From positions 32,001-96,000 of the forward strand of contig CAWDSK010000005.1 of the NCBI GenBank assembly GCA_963804995.1: a stretch of DNA of 64,000 nt. The letters are read 5' to 3'. The position numbers and the translations under genes are program-made. Positions within the stretch are counted from its first letter, which is position 1, and each line of letters begins with the position of its first letter. Source of the stretch: an uncultured Acidobacteriota bacterium (lineage in GTDB: Bacteria > Acidobacteriota > Terriglobia > UBA7540). Below are positions 18,763 to 48,855 of the stretch, one piece after another. The notes under the pieces are model-generated. The model was not told the DNA's origin. It worked only from the letters and a program-made list of their open reading frames with translations, and made no database searches.

Positions 18763-18793
18763 GTAGCGCAGACCTCCGCTGTTGAGGTCTGCG
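18763..18793 (+). repeat. REP-A copy (GTAGCGCAGACCTCCGCTGTTGAGGTCTGCG)
   Basis: GTAG followed by an imperfect palindrome; same family as the RAYT-flanking REPs. Confidence 0.9.
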
Positions 18794-23442: not shown

Positions 23443-23641
23443 CGCGGACCCCAAAACCGGGGGACCGCGCTACGCATAGTGCTAACGATATCGAGGGAGC
23501 AAACCTCGTAGCGCAGACCTCCGTTGTTGAGGTCTGCGGTTCTTCGTATGCCATGTGAGCGAATGTAGCCGTCCGTAGTTGGGGGTTTGCGGTTTTATCA
23601 CATGAAGAGCCGCGGAATCAAAATTCGGGGGACCGCGCTAC
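23443..23641. repeat. REP cluster (REP-B, REP-A, REP-B)
   Basis: CGCGGACCCCAAAACCGGGGGACCGCGCTAC at 23443, REP-A at 23508-23538, degenerate REP-B at 23611-23641. Confidence 0.9.
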
Positions 23642-23743
23642 GACGTTTGCTGGACCTGCGGCACGATAGCCGGCAGCGTCGTGCAGGCAGGGACACAACC
23701 AGAGCAGTTTTCAGATGGAGTGCGAGGGCGGCGAGACTTCAGC

Positions 23744-23917
23744 TTAACTGGTGCCAGTCAGACTCGTCGCGGCACTGGAGAACACGCTGCTGACGGCGCT
23801 GGTCACACCGTTCACCGAGACAATCAAGGCGAGGGCTATCAGGGCCACAAGCAGGGCATATTCTATTAAGTCCTGGCCGTCTTCTTCTTGCCAGAGCTGC
23901 CGCATAAGCTTCCGCAT
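23744..23917 (-). CDS. Flp family type IVb pilin (57 aa; absent from the ORF track)
   Basis: MRKLMRQLWQEEDG|QDLIEYALLVALIALALI...; prepilin G|xxxxEY motif; SD GGGAGG. Confidence 0.92.
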   Translation of the reverse strand: MRKLMRQLWQEEDGQDLIEYALLVALIALALIVSVNGVTSAVSSVFSSAATSLTGTS

Positions 23918-24138
23918 GAGTCTTTTCCTCCCTAACCTCTGAGTCTCGTTGTCGCGGTTGGACGATTCGCGATGTCACGAGCTGTTCGAGCCGCCAAAAT
24001 ACTTGCCCTCTCCCCTTTAGAGAGGGCCGTTACTCAGCGTGTGGCGCCGTAGGGGCTGGCGCGGCGAACGGTTCTCCAAAGCGGCCAGTCGTTGCGACGA
24101 TGTAACTTTACTTCTGGCCGGAATCACCCCAAGCAAGC

Positions 24139-24439
24139 ATAGAGCGGTCCCCCACTCTTGGGGTCCGCAATTCTTCATTTGAAAAATCCACCACCCGCCA
24201 AATGCACGCGACAATATGCCTACATAGTACACGAAGAACCGGAGAATCACAACGGGGGAGTGCGCTACGATGTTTGCTGCCTCGGCACCGTTAGTTACAA
24301 CCGTAATGTGGACATGCTTCGTAGCGCGGTCCCCCGGTTTTGGGGGCCGCGGTTCTTGGTTTGAAAGGCTGGTTCTTCGCCACCCACCATTCGCTCCGAT
24401 GACATACGAAGAGCCGCAGACCTCAACGGCGGAGGTCTG
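24139..24439. repeat. REP cluster upstream of RAYT; last REP-A interrupted by the intron
   Basis: REP-B at about 24139 and 24321-24351; reverse REP-A ...GGAGGTCTG ends at 24439 and resumes as CGCTAC at 26353. Confidence 0.9.
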
Positions 24440-26352
24440 GTGCGCCGGGATAAACCGGCAGAAAGCAGAGAATGAAAATTTCTCACGAGGAAGGAGTAGC
24501 GATCCACTCGGCCCCGAGTTTTGCGCTGGGCGTCGTGAGGCGCACGGTGAAGCGTAAACAGGGGAATAGGTGGGCTGGGTATTGAGCTTCGAAAATGTCC
24601 AATCAGGACGCCGACGTTTTCAGACTAAACGGAAGGCAACATGAGGCCGGGACGCCAACGCGAGTTCCGGCACAGTCCTGCGTAGTCGTAGACCCCAGAC
24701 ACGCCTAGACACTTTCTGCACGAGAACCGGGAGACCTCGGAGGCGCCGGCCGCCGTAGATCGTGGCCGGACGGCGGGAAAAGGCGATGGCCGTACAGCCC
24801 GCCTGCACGCTTTCGAGGAGTCGGACAGCGGAACAGTACCGATGAATCATTTGAACAAAGACGGGAAGCCGTTGGCGGAGAATGAGGAGGGAAGGCCGCT
24901 GATCAAGGAGAACACCCGTTGGCCTAACACGCACCCGACACAGAGCGGGGCACGCGTGTCCCAGGGACTCGCGGGTGTGCGGAAAGCCGCGAAGGAACAC
25001 AGGGAGATGAAGTTCACGGCCTTGCTCCACCACTTAACGGTCGATCTGCTGCGGGAAAGCTTTTACGCCTTGAAGCGAAAAGCTGCACCGGGAGTAGACG
25101 GCATGACGTGGCAGGAGTATGAAAGCGGGCTGGAAGGTCGACTCGTCGATCTGCACAGCCGGGTCCACCGCGGAGCATTCCGAGCGAAGCCCTCGCGAAG
25201 GGCGTATATCCCGAAAGGCGACGGGCGGCAACGTCCGTTGGGGGTTGCGGCACTGGAGGACAAGATCGTCCAACAGGCCGTGGTCACCATCCTCAAGGCG
25301 ATTTACGAGGAAGACTTTCTGGGCTTCTCGTATGGCTTTCGACCGGGATGCAGCCAGCATCAAGCGCTGGACGCGCTCTCGTACGCGCTCACGGTGAAGC
25401 ACGTGAACTACGTTCTTGACGCGGACATTCGTGGATTTTTCGATTCGATATCCCACGAATGGATGCTCAAGTTCGTGCAGCATCGCGTCGCCGACCCCCG
25501 GATTCTCCGGCTCATCCAGAAATGGCTGAAAGCCGGGGTGAGGGAGGAAGGCGAATGGTCGGAGACGGAGATGGGTACGCCACAAGGGGCGGTGGTCTCG
25601 CCCCTGCTGGCGAATATCTATCTGCACTACGTCTTTGACCTGTGGGTGCAGGCGTGGCGCAAGAAGCACGCCCGGGGAGACGTGGTCGTGGTGCGGTATG
25701 CCGACGATACGGTCCTTGGATTCCAATCGCAGACGGAAGCCGACCGCTTTCTGGAGGATTTCCGGGAGCGGGTGGGGAAGTTTGGATTGGAACTGCATCC
25801 TGACAAAACGCGCCGGATCGAGTTCGGGCCGTTTGCCGAACTTTACCGGAAACGGAGAGGAGAAGGTAAGCCGGAGACGTTCGACTTTCTGGGCTTCACG
25901 CATATCAGCGGGAAGAACCGGAGGGGGCAATTTACCGTGAAGCGGAAGACGATCAGCAAGCGCCTGCGGGGGAAGTTGCAGGAACTCAAGCAACAACTCC
26001 GGCAGCGTCGGCACGATCCCATCGCGGATACGGGTAAATGGCTCCGGTCGGTCGTGCAAGGCTACTTCAACTATCACGCGGTACCGGGAAACCTCGACCG
26101 CCTGCGAATCTTTCGGGAACGGTTGACCCGACTGTGGCGAACACAACTGCGTCAACGCAGTCAACGCCACCGCCTCAACTGGGACCGACTGGGGAAGCTT
26201 GCGGCCTGCTGGTTGCCTGCTCCGCACGTTGTGCATCCTTGGCCATCCCAACGGTTCGCCGCCACACATCCGAGATAAGAGCCGTATGCGCTAACCAGCG
26301 CACGTACGGATCCGTGCGGGGGGTACCGGGTAACCGGTATCCCTACCGCAAC
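24440..26352 (+). mobile_element. Group II intron, full length
   Basis: 5' GTGCG at 24440; domain V GAGCCGTATGCG...CGCACGTACGGATC and domain VI ending ...CCCTACCGCAAC at 26352; RT ORF inside; removing it restores an intact REP. Confidence 0.95.
24842..26278 (+). CDS. ltrA: Group II intron reverse transcriptase/maturase, no C-terminal endonuclease
   Basis: APGVDG, RPLGV, SYGFRPG, GTPQG, RYADD, FDFLGFTH, domain X GYFNYHAVP; start codon uncertain. Confidence 0.95.
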   Translation: MNHLNKDGKPLAENEEGRPLIKENTRWPNTHPTQSGARVSQGLAGVRKAAKEHREMKFTALLHHLTVDLLRESFYALKRKAAPGVDGMTWQEYESGLEGRLVDLHSRVHRGAFRAKPSRRAYIPKGDGRQRPLGVAALEDKIVQQAVVTILKAIYEEDFLGFSYGFRPGCSQHQALDALSYALTVKHVNYVLDADIRGFFDSISHEWMLKFVQHRVADPRILRLIQKWLKAGVREEGEWSETEMGTPQGAVVSPLLANIYLHYVFDLWVQAWRKKHARGDVVVVRYADDTVLGFQSQTEADRFLEDFRERVGKFGLELHPDKTRRIEFGPFAELYRKRRGEGKPETFDFLGFTHISGKNRRGQFTVKRKTISKRLRGKLQELKQQLRQRRHDPIADTGKWLRSVVQGYFNYHAVPGNLDRLRIFRERLTRLWRTQLRQRSQRHRLNWDRLGKLAACWLPAPHVVHPWPSQRFAATHPR

Positions 26353-26400
26353 CGCTACGGTTCACTGGTGATACCTCCGCCACTGTTGTATTCTGGCCGC

Positions 26401-26922
26401 GTGTCACGGCTACGTCGGCTTTTTCTTTCTGATCGGTTCTTCTTCATCACGGTGCGCCTACTGGAGCGCCGCCGCAAATTAGATGATGCCGATTTCGAGC
26501 GTCTGGCACTGGCCATCTCCAGGAGCCGGAAGTCTCATCCCTTCTTCCTAACGGCCTGGGTGTTTCTTCCCAATCACTGGCATGCGATCTGTGCCCTACA
26601 ACATCCGGTGACTATTATTGAAGTCATGAAATCCATCAAAGTCAGCTCGACGACACTCATCAACGAGGGCCGCTCCCGGTCAGGTGGATTGTGGGTGGGC
26701 CGTTATTTTGACCGTGCCCTGCGAACTGTGAAGGAATACCACGAGAAGGTGGACTACATTCACAGGAATCCGGTAAAGGCAGGATTGGTCGGTCGGGCCG
26801 AGGAGTGGCGATGGTCCAGCGCGATCGAGTATTCCGGTGTGAGTGCGGCGGAACAAATGCTCCGCTGCGGGTTGACCATTGATCGGGTGAATCTCCCCTC
26901 GGATTTGAAAACGAGAATCTAG
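26401..26922 (+). CDS. REP-associated tyrosine transposase (RAYT, HUH Y1/IS200-like)
   Basis: FFFITV, AWVFLPNHWH (HUH), YIHRNPVKAGLV (catalytic Tyr), WRWSS; GTG start; flanked by GTAG REPs. Confidence 0.92.
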   Translation: MSRLRRLFLSDRFFFITVRLLERRRKLDDADFERLALAISRSRKSHPFFLTAWVFLPNHWHAICALQHPVTIIEVMKSIKVSSTTLINEGRSRSGGLWVGRYFDRALRTVKEYHEKVDYIHRNPVKAGLVGRAEEWRWSSAIEYSGVSAAEQMLRCGLTIDRVNLPSDLKTRI

Positions 26923-26923
26923 C

Positions 26924-27551
26924 GTAGCGGCGTCCCCCTTATTGGGTCCGCGGTTCTTGGTTTGCAAAATTCGCAAAACCTCAACATACGGGTGGCTACG
27001 TTCGCTCAGAGGGAAGACGAAGAACCGCAGACCTCAACGGCGGAGGTCTGCGCTACGAGGTTTGCTCCCTCGGTATCGTTAGCATGAGGCGTAGCGCGGT
27101 CCCCCGGTTTTGGGGTCCGCGGTTCTTCATTTGCAAAATCCGCAAACCCCAACATGCGGGTGGCTGCATTCGCTCCGATGGCACACGAAGAGCCGCAGAC
27201 CTCAACGGCGGAGGTCTGCGCTACGAGGTTTGCAGCCTCTGCATCGTTAGCATGAAGCGTAGCGCGGTCCCCCGCTTTTGGGGTCCGCGGTTCTTGGTTT
27301 GAAAGGCTGGTTCTTCGCCACCCACCATTCGCTCCGATGACATACGAAGAGCCGCAGACCTCAACGGCGGAGGTCTGCGCTACGAGGTTTGCTCCCTCGG
27401 TATCGTTAGCATGAGGCGTAGCGCGGTCCCCCGCTTTTGGGGTCCGCAATTCTTCATTTGCAAAATCCGCAAACCCCAACATACGGGTGGCTGCATTCGC
27501 TCCGATGGCACATGAAGAGCCGCAGACCTCAACGGCGGAGGTCTGCGCTAC
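26924..27551. repeat. Tandem REPIN/BIME-like array of alternating REP-B and inverted REP-A (~160-170 bp unit, 4 units)
   Basis: REP-B GTAG starts at 26924 (degenerate), 27091, 27259, 27418; each followed by reverse REP-A ending GCGCTAC. Confidence 0.93.
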
Positions 27552-45157: not shown

Positions 45158-45233
45158 GCTGGCGTAGCTCAGCTGGTAGAGCATCTGATTTGTAATCAGA
45201 GGGTCGGGGGTTCAAATCCCTTCGCCAGCTCCA
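45158..45233 (+). tRNA. tRNA-Thr(TGT)
   Basis: Cloverleaf, CTGAT-TTGTAA-TCAG anticodon arm, GGTTCAAATCC, encoded CCA. Confidence 0.97.
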
Positions 45234-45460
45234 GTTTGGGCAAGCGTCGGCATGATTGGATCTGGCGGCGGGTGCCAATCAAAAAAATTGGGGAGCGGGT
45301 TTACCAAAATCTGAAAGTACTCAGGAATGCGCGGGAAGAGGAGTGTCTCCGCGCCCAACCGCATTCTCGATCCACTTAGCTCAAATGGATTCTGTGTCTG
45401 GGGCTGAGCGGAAGCCAGCGCCAGCGCTCGCCAGGGTTCCTGGGACGGAAGAAGCAAATT

Positions 45461-45549
45461 GGACAGGTGGCTGAGCGGTCAAAAGCAGCAGACTGTAAAT
45501 CTGCCGACCCCTGTGGTCTACGGAGGTTCGAACCCTCCCCTGTCCACCA
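45461..45549 (+). tRNA. tRNA-Tyr(GTA)
   Basis: GCAGA-CTGTAAA-TCTGC, long variable arm, CCA. Confidence 0.97.
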
Positions 45550-45654
45550 GTTTGGGACTCGAAACTCGAAACTGGAAATTCGAAACTCGGGGGACGTTGA
45601 AAGTGTGGTGCGCTACGCGAGTTTCGGTTTTCGAATTTCGAGTTTCGAAAAAGG

Positions 45655-45729
45655 GCGGGAGTAACTCAATGGTAGAGTCACAGCCTTCCAAGCTGTTGGT
45701 CGCGGGTTCGATTCCCGTCTCCCGCTCCA
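45655..45729 (+). tRNA. tRNA-Gly(TCC)
   Basis: CAGC-CTTCCAA-GCTG, GGTTCGATTCC, CCA. Confidence 0.97.
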
Positions 45730-45831
45730 GTTCGAAATTCGAAAATGGAAACTCGAAACTCGAGGGCAGGACGGTTCAGTACGAATTTCGGTTTTCGAAT
45801 TTCGGTTTTCGCGCGCCGCAGGGCGCGGCGG

Positions 45832-45907
45832 GCCGATGTAGCTCAGTTGGTAGAGCACGTCCTTGGTAAGGACGGGGTCAGCGGTTCAATTCCGCTCATC
45901 GGCTCCA
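45832..45907 (+). tRNA. tRNA-Thr(GGT)
   Basis: GTCCT-TGGTAAG-GAC anticodon arm, GGTTCAATTCC, CCA. Confidence 0.97.
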
Positions 45908-45934
45908 GAATTTGAAGTACTGGAATCAGGCTGA

Positions 45935-46348
45935 ATGTTGAGTTTGGAAGGAAGACGGCGAGCGAAGGACCATCTAAGCCTGGCTCGCGGTTTCATGGAC
46001 ACGGCGAAAGTAGGGCGTGCATCTTCTGAGTGCGATATTCGCAACGCCTTTTCCCGCGCCTACTATGCCCTGTTTCACGCGTGTTATGCATTGCTGCTGG
46101 GCCAGGGTAACGAGCCGGACTTGGTGCAACAGATTGCCAGGGATCATGGCCGCTTGCAGTCGAAGGTACGGCATCCCATGGGAAGGCCGTTTGAACACTA
46201 TGTAAGGGAAGCCTACGACCGGCGGCGGCAGTCTGACTACGAACCTGATTGGCCTGTGCCGTCGGCCACGGTTGCGCAAGAGGAGCTGAAGCGGGCAAGA
46301 GAGCAGTTCTATTGGGTTTTTCACACGACTCTGCGAAGTTTGGTGTAG
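45935..46348 (+). CDS. HEPN domain protein (UPF0332-like)
   Basis: RNAFSRAYYALFHACYALL and RRRQSDY motifs. Confidence 0.85.
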   Translation: MLSLEGRRRAKDHLSLARGFMDTAKVGRASSECDIRNAFSRAYYALFHACYALLLGQGNEPDLVQQIARDHGRLQSKVRHPMGRPFEHYVREAYDRRRQSDYEPDWPVPSATVAQEELKRAREQFYWVFHTTLRSLV

Positions 46349-46369
46349 TCACTGCGCTTGGAATTTGCC

Positions 46370-47242
46370 ATGACCGTCATTGATCTGGAACAATCCGTTC
46401 GTGGCGCGCTGCAAGAGGCGGGGCTCCTGCAGCTTCTGGATGAGGGTCAGACACAGTTCCTGGAGTTTCCGGACGGTTGGTTTGCCGAGATTGTTGTCAA
46501 AGACGGTTCCCGGCTGGCGGAGGTGGAGAAGGTTGTTGAAAGATACAAGGAGCGTCTGCGGCGCAATGATGATGGCGAACTTGATGAAATTGTCCGGCCC
46601 ATCTGGAGGATTGCAAAGATTGAACGCGTGGGGCCAAGTGTCAGCCTTCCGGCACTGGAATCGGCCATCCGTTTTAGGGTTGTGCTCCAGTCTGGGGACC
46701 TAAGCTGCGATGTTAAGGTCGACTTTACCGAGGGCGCGCTCAAGTTGATGCGCAAGAAACTGCGCGAGACGAAAGCGCCCGAAGATATGGCCTTAACAGA
46801 GATTGTCCATGAGTTCATGAGCCTGCAGTTAGCCCAGGGCGGGAAGAGTTTCTGGGATCCGCGCCGCGATTCGCGCCTCGAACTTGATGCGGGTGCTTTC
46901 ATGGCCCTGATGGGTCGCTGGGATTCGGTCGAGCACCTTAAGGCGTCCATCGACGCTGTTTTCAAGGCTCCTGAACCTATGACGACCATTCGTAACTTCC
47001 TGACGTTGGTATCGATGGGAGGTAGAAAGGCCCGCGATTTTGAAAGCGTGCTGGTTGATTTGCCGGGTCCGGGCGGCGCATTTCGTCCCGGCGACAAGCT
47101 GCCCACCAGCAACCACGAGTTGTACTCAACCCTCCTCGATTCCGAACGTGAGGTCTTGAGAAGGTATTATTGGGACCATCTTGAAAGAGCCAAAACTGAA
47201 TTTCCAGAGTTGAAGGAGCAATTTCCCAACGTGTTGAACTAG
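46370..47242 (+). CDS. Hypothetical protein (~290 aa)
   Basis: Long ORF with globular composition exactly filling the gap between the HEPN gene and tuf. Confidence 0.8.
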   Translation: MTVIDLEQSVRGALQEAGLLQLLDEGQTQFLEFPDGWFAEIVVKDGSRLAEVEKVVERYKERLRRNDDGELDEIVRPIWRIAKIERVGPSVSLPALESAIRFRVVLQSGDLSCDVKVDFTEGALKLMRKKLRETKAPEDMALTEIVHEFMSLQLAQGGKSFWDPRRDSRLELDAGAFMALMGRWDSVEHLKASIDAVFKAPEPMTTIRNFLTLVSMGGRKARDFESVLVDLPGPGGAFRPGDKLPTSNHELYSTLLDSEREVLRRYYWDHLERAKTEFPELKEQFPNVLN

Positions 47243-47258
47243 CTGAGGAACGGAGACT

Positions 47259-48449
<1,191 letters not shown>

Positions 48450-48531
48450 CAGCGTTCGGCTCTCAGCTTTCAGCCAGGACATGGGCTGAGGGCGATGAGC
48501 TGAAAGCTGAGAGCTGAGAGCTAGGAACGCG

Positions 48532-48681
48532 ATGCGCGAAATCATTACGCTACAGTGCGGCGATTGCAAGAACCGCAACTACTCGTCGACGAAGAACAAG
48601 AAGAAGAATCAGGACCGCCTGGAGATCAAGAAGTTCTGCCCCTCGTGCCGGCACCATACGGTCCATAAAGAAGTAAAGTAG
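48532..48681 (+). CDS. rpmG: 50S ribosomal protein L33 (zinc-binding form; absent from the ORF track)
   Basis: [24 protein letters not shown]...[17 protein letters not shown]. Confidence 0.97.
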
Positions 48682-48779
48682 GCAGTCGGCAGAAGGCAGT
48701 AGGCAGCAAAAGGACAACGACGGCAGGAGTTCAAGGATCGCTGCTTACTGCCTTCTGCTTACTGCCGACTGGTTTTCAC

Positions 48780-48855
48780 AGGGGCGTCAGATTAACGGCT
48801 AATCTGCCGGTCTCCAAAACCGGTCATGGGGGTTCAAATCCCTCCGCCCCTGCCA
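48780..48855 (+). tRNA. tRNA-Trp(CCA)
   Basis: CCGGT-CTCCAAA-ACCGG, GGTTCAAATCC, CCA; typical position before secE. Confidence 0.93.

Follow-up and report, generated by a model that had tools for sequence, protein, structure and literature searches.

A group II intron in a REP beside a RAYT gene

The window analysed here is a stretch of 64,000 nucleotides from the genome of an uncultured soil bacterium of the Acidobacteriota (assembly G000, 7.55 Mb in nine contigs, with contig numbers preceded by C; the window is G000:C5:32001-96000). It contains a complete group II intron that splits a repetitive extragenic palindrome (REP), here called REP-A, next to a gene encoding a REP-associated tyrosine transposase (RAYT). 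Coordinates are collected in Table 1, and a slash within a sequence marks the insertion point. An initial annotation of the window had placed the intron ends at GTGCG and CGCAAC, splitting REP-A between them, and this is borne out by the sequence: the left flank ends ...CCGCAGACCTCAACGGCGGAGGTCTG, the right flank starts CGCTACGG..., and with the intron removed the two read GGAGGTCTG/CGCTAC.

The 5' GUGCG, the AGC triad of domain V and the bulged A (26345) of domain VI identify the element as a mobile group II intron, and conserved ribozyme domains I-IV are present since Rfam model RF02005 (gathering score 49 bits) is matched over its whole length. About 476 nt of the intron lie outside the open reading frame (ORF). 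The domain V loop has 6 nt, as against 5 nt in five sister lineages. The intron-encoded reverse transcriptase (RT)/maturase exceeds the NCBIfam cut-off for TIGR04416 (300 bits) and, because RVT_1 is its sole match in Pfam, no endonuclease domain was detected in it.

The initial annotation had also put a RAYT gene beside the intron. The downstream ORF passes NCBIfam NF047646 (cut-off 80 bits), which confirms it. This gene is flanked on either side by arrays of REP-A in alternation with a second, GTAGCG-headed unit; the downstream one resembles a bacterial interspersed mosaic element (BIME). REP-A has the layout CGCAGACCTC-loop-GAGGTCTG/CGCTAC, and its head, GTAGCG, is read on the opposite strand; the target is a non-coding palindrome of 35 bp. 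As single-stranded DNA, an intact REP-A folds at -12.1 kcal/mol and the insertion point falls within the stem, between eight distal and four proximal pairs. The rejoined 15-mer GGAGGTCTGCGCTAC occurs as six exact uninterrupted copies in the window (at 18763 and 23508 on the minus strand and at 27042, 27210, 27369 and 27537 on the plus strand), compared with 0.08 expected by chance, and none of 100 shuffles reached six. The six or more uninterrupted copies of REP-A counted earlier were thus recovered.

Table 1. Features of the intron, its REP target and the adjoining RAYT locus (EBS, exon-binding site; IBS, intron-binding site)
Feature	Position	Strand	Basis and details
5' part of split REP-A, hairpin CAGACCTC-AACGGCG-GAGGTCTG	24409..24439	+	Sequence; fold of intact copy
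Candidate short IBS2, GGA	24431-24433	+	Sequence
IBS1, GGTCTG	24434-24439	+	Six bases preceding the insertion
Group II intron, complete, 1913 nt	24440..26352	+	5' GUGCG, domains I-VI, 3' ...CGCAAC; read from sequence
Domain I core	24475..24695	+	Rfam RF02005 (group-II-D1D4-6), 173 bits, E 2.4e-50, model 1-225 of 225
Candidate vestigial EBS2 (UCC), tentative	24598..24600	+	Internal loop CGAAAAUGUCCAAUC upstream of EBS1 stem; lineage alignment
EBS1 (CAGACU)	24621..24626	+	Terminal loop of hairpin GCCGACG...CGGAAGGC; Rfam consensus structure
Candidate EBS3, tentative: G in GUC-G-UAGAC	24688	+	Partner is the first 3'-exon base, C; lineage alignment
Intron-encoded RT/maturase, 478 aa, YADD	24842..26278	+	ORF translation; TIGR04416 342.5 bits; RVT_1 E 1.7e-39
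Domain V (GAGCCGUAU...GUACGGAUC)	26279..26312	+	AGC triad, 6-nt loop; read from sequence
Domain VI	26313..26352	+	Bulged A at 26345, 7 nt upstream of 3' splice site; read from sequence
3' part of split REP-A, CGCTAC	26353..26358	+	Complement of GTAGCG head
RAYT gene	26386..26922	+	Y1_Tnp (Pfam); NF047646 111.8 bits; start TTG 26386 or GTG 26401
BIME-like array downstream of RAYT gene	27025..27551	+	REP-A at 27042, 27210, 27369 and 27537, alternating with three REP-B (GTAGCGCGGTCCCC...)

A second REP family, REP-C, is also targeted by the intron and has the layout GCAGACCCC-loop-GGGGTCTG/CGCCAGCC. The genome has 202 intact targets of REP-A and 42 of the second family. The latter lies on the flanks of a second RAYT gene (G000:C6:722277-722825, NF047646 117.1 bits), and a copy of the intron sits in a REP about 60 nt past the stop codon of that gene. 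Both targeted families therefore flank a RAYT gene of their own, and each of these RAYT genes has an intron copy in a flanking REP. A third RAYT gene (G000:C2 near 304.8 kb, 112.5 bits) has none of these REPs nearby. A Y1/HUH-family RAYT gene surrounded by high-copy GTAG-headed palindromes is the hallmark of a REP/RAYT system and, by analogy with other species (PMC2817692), the RAYT may cleave or mobilise these REPs.

All copies of the intron occupy one position in REPs

A blastn search of the genome revealed 39 copies at 99.69-100% identity, all with identical ends, together with a partial copy clipped at the end of a contig and six short, more divergent matches, which are 80-90% identical over at most 160 bases, apart from one with 70% over 229. 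The EBS1 loop is invariant in all 39 copies, and 38 of them have an uninterrupted protein frame. The last six bases of the 5' flank, readable in 37 copies (two are clipped by contig ends), are GGTCTG in 32, GGTCCG in four and AGTCTG in one; the first six of the 3' flank, readable in all 39, are CGCTAC in 24, CGCCAG in 13, CGCCAT in one and CGCCAA in one. Thus, every readable 5' flank ends in (G/A)GTC(T/C)G inside a REP hairpin and every 3' flank starts CGC(T/C)A, with no other 3' flank found among the 39 copies. The insertion position is identical across two REP families with many different loops, while the sequence beyond the REP is, with few exceptions, unrelated between copies.

The 37 full-length copies fall into 26 haplotypes, which are defined by nine shared variable positions and form a reticulate pattern; the same haplotypes are present in both REP families. 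In one copy (G000:C3:1518829-1520741), the 5' flank is a REP-A stem and the 3' flank carries the head of the second family. Intact REPs with this combination are absent from the genome (0, versus 131 with stem and head of REP-A, 25 with stem and head of REP-C and 19 with a REP-C stem and a REP-A head), and such a mixed pair of flanks may have been left by recombination among copies of the intron.

Two tandem pairs of introns were seen (G000:C6:2168574-2172663 and C7:1-3886). Four contig ends (C2 start, C6 end, C7 start and C9 end) lie within an intron copy or directly next to one; the intron probably breaks the assembly and the real copy number may exceed the count. Besides this intron, the genome encodes two or more other families of group II intron RT, each in several copies and 32-37% identical to the RT in the window (C9:153936-154739, C6:293962-296931, C1:97964-98857 and eight other places).

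EBS1 covaries with the 5' exon

The loop CAGACU forms five Watson-Crick pairs and one G-U pair with IBS1. Its role was examined in related introns, drawn from 40 relatives, further regions and 79 loci from a species collection. Both the 5' anchor and the hairpin were found in 56 loci, giving 49 distinct loop/flank pairs with 30 distinct loops. The best six-base window of each loop was scored against the last six exon bases, and in permutations loops were dealt to the exons of other lineages. Mean pairing was 5.73 of 6 for the 30 distinct loops, compared with 4.38 on average and 4.73 at most in the permutations, none of which (0 of 1000) attained the observed value. Pairing was complete (6/6) in 36 of the 49 loop/flank pairs, with combinations as different as CCUGAC/GTCAGG, UGUCAG/CTGACA, AAUGAU/ATCATT and UGCAUU/AATGCA. 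It is clear that the CAGACU loop is EBS1, as the initial annotation had proposed from the pairing in the window; it maps to the exon-binding loop, at the end of a hairpin of the Rfam structure, and covaries with the 5' exon.

The other contacts are less distinct. The initial annotation had put forward a fold of domain I as a check on EBS1 and EBS2, and only the former was firmly placed. For EBS2 there is a tentative candidate, UCC, whose possible partner GGA/GGG at -9..-7 allows 3 bp at most, and no consistent EBS2 pairing was found for the REP-homing lineages in the lineage alignment; the equivalent loop of lineage L005 pairs over 6 bp (AAACGC with GCGTTT). The automatic search found no strictly covarying EBS3 column, and G 24688 was chosen by eye. 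This column has G with exon C in seven lineages and A with exon T in L006 and L039, with L003 as an exception. A further intron loop, GUAGCG (24496-24501), has the sequence of the REP head and is the exact complement of the 3' exon CGCUAC (+1..+6). However, the motif GNAGCGA is kept in lineages that have other 3' exons, so the complementarity may be a coincidence.

REP occupancy varies with match, 3' flank and strand

Occupancy of REP-A follows the match to EBS1, with 19 of 103 sites occupied for GGTCTG and 4 of 122 for GGTCCG (p 2.4e-4). The sequence GGTCTG/CGC is occupied at 33 of 150 sites in a REP context compared with 0 of 130 elsewhere (p 2e-10), where sites headed CGCCAT and CGCCAA are counted as REPs and some of the sites elsewhere may be worn REPs. 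Among the 156 empty GGRGGTCTG/C sites, 89 continue CGCTA or CGCCA and 67 do not; the latter include 13 with CGAT, nine of them in hairpins, and ten with CCATG, which belong to another repeat. The CGAT sites are mostly the other strand of the second REP family. As the CGAT hairpin sites pair perfectly and yet are unused, a hairpin with perfect pairing is insufficient and positions +2 to +5 count.

Insertions are also strongly biased with respect to strand, being 15/15 minus on C6, 4/4 plus on C5, 6/7 minus on C3 and 4/4 minus on C9. On the five contigs with a clear sign of GC skew, the sense strand is on the G-rich strand in 26 of 27 insertions, compared with 74 of 193 empty REP targets (p 2.8e-9). 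When match and strand are taken together, occupancy is 41% (22/54) for GGTCTG and 5% (3/62) for GGTCCG on the G-rich strand, and 1.3% (1/75) and 0% (0/64), respectively, on the opposite strand. Endonuclease-less introns reverse-splice into the lagging-strand template (PMC8914252; review PMC4424553), and the strand bias observed here fits such a use.

REP homing in a sister species and in the wider intron family

Six copies of a lineage 92% identical in protein sequence are present in the genome of a sister species, G005, all of them in REP hairpins headed CGCT(A/G)(C/T). Its EBS1 is CGGACU, and the 16 intact REPs of that genome have stems reading GGTCCG (11), GGGCCG (4) and GGTCTG (1). Covariation of EBS1 with the REP, which the initial annotation had put forward as a check, is therefore seen between the two species, CAGACU and CGGACU each being in step with the dominant REP stem. 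Other REP-like targets are found as well: some lineages are inserted after hairpins headed GGCTGGCG, and one lies in a CGCTAC-headed REP in a Candidatus Angelobacter genome.

The intron family is widespread in Acidobacteriota, with 565 confirmed stretches. A strict hairpin context occurs in 8 of the 49 loop/flank pairs and the other 41 are in non-hairpin sites. Since homologues at about 85% protein identity or less are mostly in non-hairpin sites, REP homing is a trait of particular lineages and not of the whole family. On a protein tree of 28 rows (one per loop type, with L011 on a long branch), the hairpin habit requires four changes, compared with a mean of 5.6 for shuffled labels, and 22 of 500 shuffles gave as few.

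Several sister lineages start GAAAGCG, GAUAGCG, GUAAGCG or GAGCG instead of GUGCG (L035, L036, L047 and L048 in G005; L041, L042 and L011; L052; L006, L039 and L051), boundaries that were set by EBS1-IBS1 pairing, and several of these are present as multiple copies with open reading frames. Three sister lineages (L003:3324-3586, L053:187-308 and L068:97-297) are inserted in a clustered, non-hairpin repeat of about 31 nt, with a consensus of approximately AGCGGGAATGTnnATGAAAACAAAGG and a spacing of 40-50 nt, a further intergenic, multicopy target for this family of introns.

Comparison with known introns and REP-targeting elements

Class C introns insert after terminator stem-loops or into attC sites (PMC10190682; Zimmerly & Semper 2015, PMC4424553), and the target in this class, of which the E.r. 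intron is an example, comprises a stem, a spacer and about four single-stranded IBS1 bases (Chung et al. 2022, PMC10190682). The intron in the window resembles them in its lack of a detected endonuclease domain and of a long EBS2, its small ribozyme, its intergenic palindromic targets and its many copies. Unlike theirs, its IBS1 is six bases long and is itself the stem's 3' arm; no spacer intervenes and the cut falls inside the stem. The intron also depends on positions +2 to +5 of the 3' flank, refuses hairpins alone and, taken with its sister lineages, has a domain V loop of 5-6 bases. The domain V triad of class C introns is CGC, whereas it is AGC here. A search of PDB with the intron protein gave 144 bits for the TeI4h RT and 137-140 bits for class C RTs, which does not separate the classes.

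Introns of classes E and F measure 450-700 nt without the protein gene, have a domain V loop of more than four bases and lack an endonuclease domain (Nagy et al. 2013, PMC3753933). With its 476 nt, domain V loop, endonuclease-less protein and IIB-like layout, the compact ribozyme appears to resemble these classes; it differs in that its EBS2 candidate pairs over at most 3 bp, where classes E and F have a well-defined EBS2-IBS2 interaction (PMC3753933). A further mark of these classes is an alpha' located at the end of a stem-loop in DId3.

The class D intron RmInt1 of Sinorhizobium meliloti, which is also endonuclease-less, homes into the multicopy insertion sequence ISRm2011-2 using the lagging-strand template (PMC8914252). 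The present intron likewise homes sequence-specifically into a repeated mobile element, and its bias to one strand fits. However, its target is a RAYT-served palindrome and not an insertion sequence, and its ribozyme family, RF02005, is different. The RmInt1 target, too, reaches +5.

REPs are known as landing sites of the insertion sequences IS1397, ISKpn1, ISPpu9, ISPpu10 and ISPa11 (Tobes & Pareja 2006, PMC1525189; Nunvar et al. 2010, PMC2817692), and for ISPpu9 and ISPpu10 all seven of seven copies are in REPs (PMC1525189). The intron likewise lands almost exclusively in REPs, but whereas these elements are DNA transposons that rely on recognition by a transposase, it relies on RNA-DNA pairing, which can be re-aimed through EBS1. 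A group II intron of Pseudomonas putida KT2440 is REP-associated in two of nine copies (Tobes & Pareja 2006, PMC1525189). It shares with the present intron a location in or beside REPs, but there only a minority of copies is concerned and, in the passages on that intron, no mechanism is given, while here 39 of 39 copies are at one nucleotide position and EBS1 pairing is demonstrated. In its sections on target choice, a 2015 review divides the targets of bacterial group II introns into three specificities, namely homing sites, terminator motifs and attC sites, with no mention of REPs (PMC4424553); the word 'intron' is absent from the available text of Nunvar et al. 2010 (PMC2817692) and Di Nocera et al. 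2013, and the relevant part of a survey of reverse transcriptases includes RAYT among the genes found near RT genes. No description of REP-specific homing by a group II intron was found in the open literature, a search that excluded subscription journals, the intron database and supplements.

Probable RNA-guided homing and its alternatives

The best explanation, to which we give a probability of about 0.8, is that this is an active or very recently active endonuclease-less group II intron which retrohomes in a sequence-specific manner into the junction of the REP hairpin and the GTAGCG head. The initial annotation had suggested homing into a multicopy intergenic target and had regarded copies lying mostly outside REPs as the finding that would speak against it. 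In fact, all 39 copies here and all six of the closest lineage in the sister species are in REPs, at a single REP position in this genome and with preference for sites matching EBS1. The mechanism is ordinary RNA-guided homing on an unusual multicopy target and not recognition of hairpin shape. EBS1 pairs with the six bases that end the 3' arm of the REP stem, the intron protein or a further RNA contact may read positions +2 to +5, and the nascent strand would prime cDNA synthesis, as in other endonuclease-less introns. Homing probably takes place at replication forks. If the literature on RAYTs applies, RAYT activity would supply fresh copies of the target, whereas a REP whose head and hairpin have been parted by an insertion is probably no longer a substrate for RAYT. 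To call the intron a parasite is a matter of interpretation.

Several observations weigh against this explanation. IBS1 is held in a stable stem (-12.1 kcal/mol), and EBS1 can reach it only once that stem has opened. In the sister species, IBS1 is internally mismatched to EBS1 in five of the six copies (GGGCCG or GGCCCG). The four REP-A targets downstream in the window are empty, although they are on the strand used by all four insertions in that contig. Gene conversion, or a mixed population from which the genome was assembled, may account for the reticulate haplotypes. Among contigs from four public metagenome and metatranscriptome runs that were compared with 23600-27000, none joins 24439 to 26353, which speaks neither for nor against splicing or empty-site alleles; pieces of the intron occur in the RNA libraries of public runs, a presence that does not in itself demonstrate transcription. 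As regards strand, the absolute value of GC skew nowhere exceeds 0.026. Long ORFs follow the skew only loosely: in most contigs 47-53% of them are on the expected strand, and their bias has the sign of the skew in four of the five contigs with clear skew and is neutral (0.50) in C4. Because skew and ORF bias are weak, that the G-rich strand is the leading strand, and hence the link with replication, is something we infer.

Recognition of shape, as in class C, would mean that the intron seeks any DNA stem-loop and that REPs are merely the commonest hairpins. This is unlikely, even though every target in the genome is a hairpin, the small ribozyme has about 476 nt outside the ORF, and the protein is without a detected endonuclease domain. 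An IBS1 that is the 3' arm of the stem, with the cut inside it, differs from the class C layout (PMC10190682), and a domain V loop of 5-6 bases is a feature of classes E and F (Nagy et al. 2013, PMC3753933). Perfectly pairing hairpins with a CGAT flank are occupied in no case and empty in nine, and sister lineages with the same ribozyme architecture use non-hairpin sites in 41 of 49 loop/flank pairs.

It is highly improbable that the intron has been spread by RAYT or by recombination, as a passenger in copied REP or BIME units and without retrohoming. REP halves do bracket each copy, RAYT genes adjoin two copies, there are two tandem pairs, and one occupied site combines a REP-A stem with a REP-C head, for which no intact counterpart exists. 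However, only a few copies have related flanks outside the REP, all 39 join the REP exactly at the intron ends, and two REP families with many different loops are used; moreover, occupancy follows both the EBS1 match and the DNA strand, neither of which is predicted by passive copying. An assembly artefact, in which a high-copy intron was misplaced at repeats of a metagenome-assembled genome, deserves hardly any credence. Four contig ends in or right beside intron copies and the reticulate haplotypes would be in keeping with it, but 35 copies are inside long contigs with distinct flanks on both sides, and the same arrangement recurs in the independent genome G005 with a different EBS1 and a different REP stem.

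A conflict at three levels may be imagined beyond RNA-guided homing, in which the intron would track REP families by mutation of EBS1, disable REPs as RAYT substrates and, as a hyperparasite, shape REP populations. Stem variants such as GGTCCG, which are occupied four to five times less often, would then be escape alleles, and pairing with the arm of a DNA hairpin would be a fourth natural target strategy. This extension is tentative and rather doubtful.

Elsewhere in the window, five tRNA genes are clustered at 45158-48852, all on the plus strand.

Significance

REP elements are a natural landing site for mobile group II introns. A REP-homing lineage that pairs with the stem arm adds a natural multicopy target to the three specificities reviewed previously (PMC4424553). 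Hundreds of near-identical sites, whose differences concern a single IBS1 base, the 3' flank and the orientation, constitute a natural experiment on target rules, and such an intron could seed gene-targeting tools for multicopy sites. For the genome itself, forty dispersed repeats of 1.9 kb are a likely source of rearrangements as well as of assembly breaks. Furthermore, a retroelement and a RAYT/REP system, both of which are thought to use single-stranded DNA at replication forks, are linked here via a single substrate.

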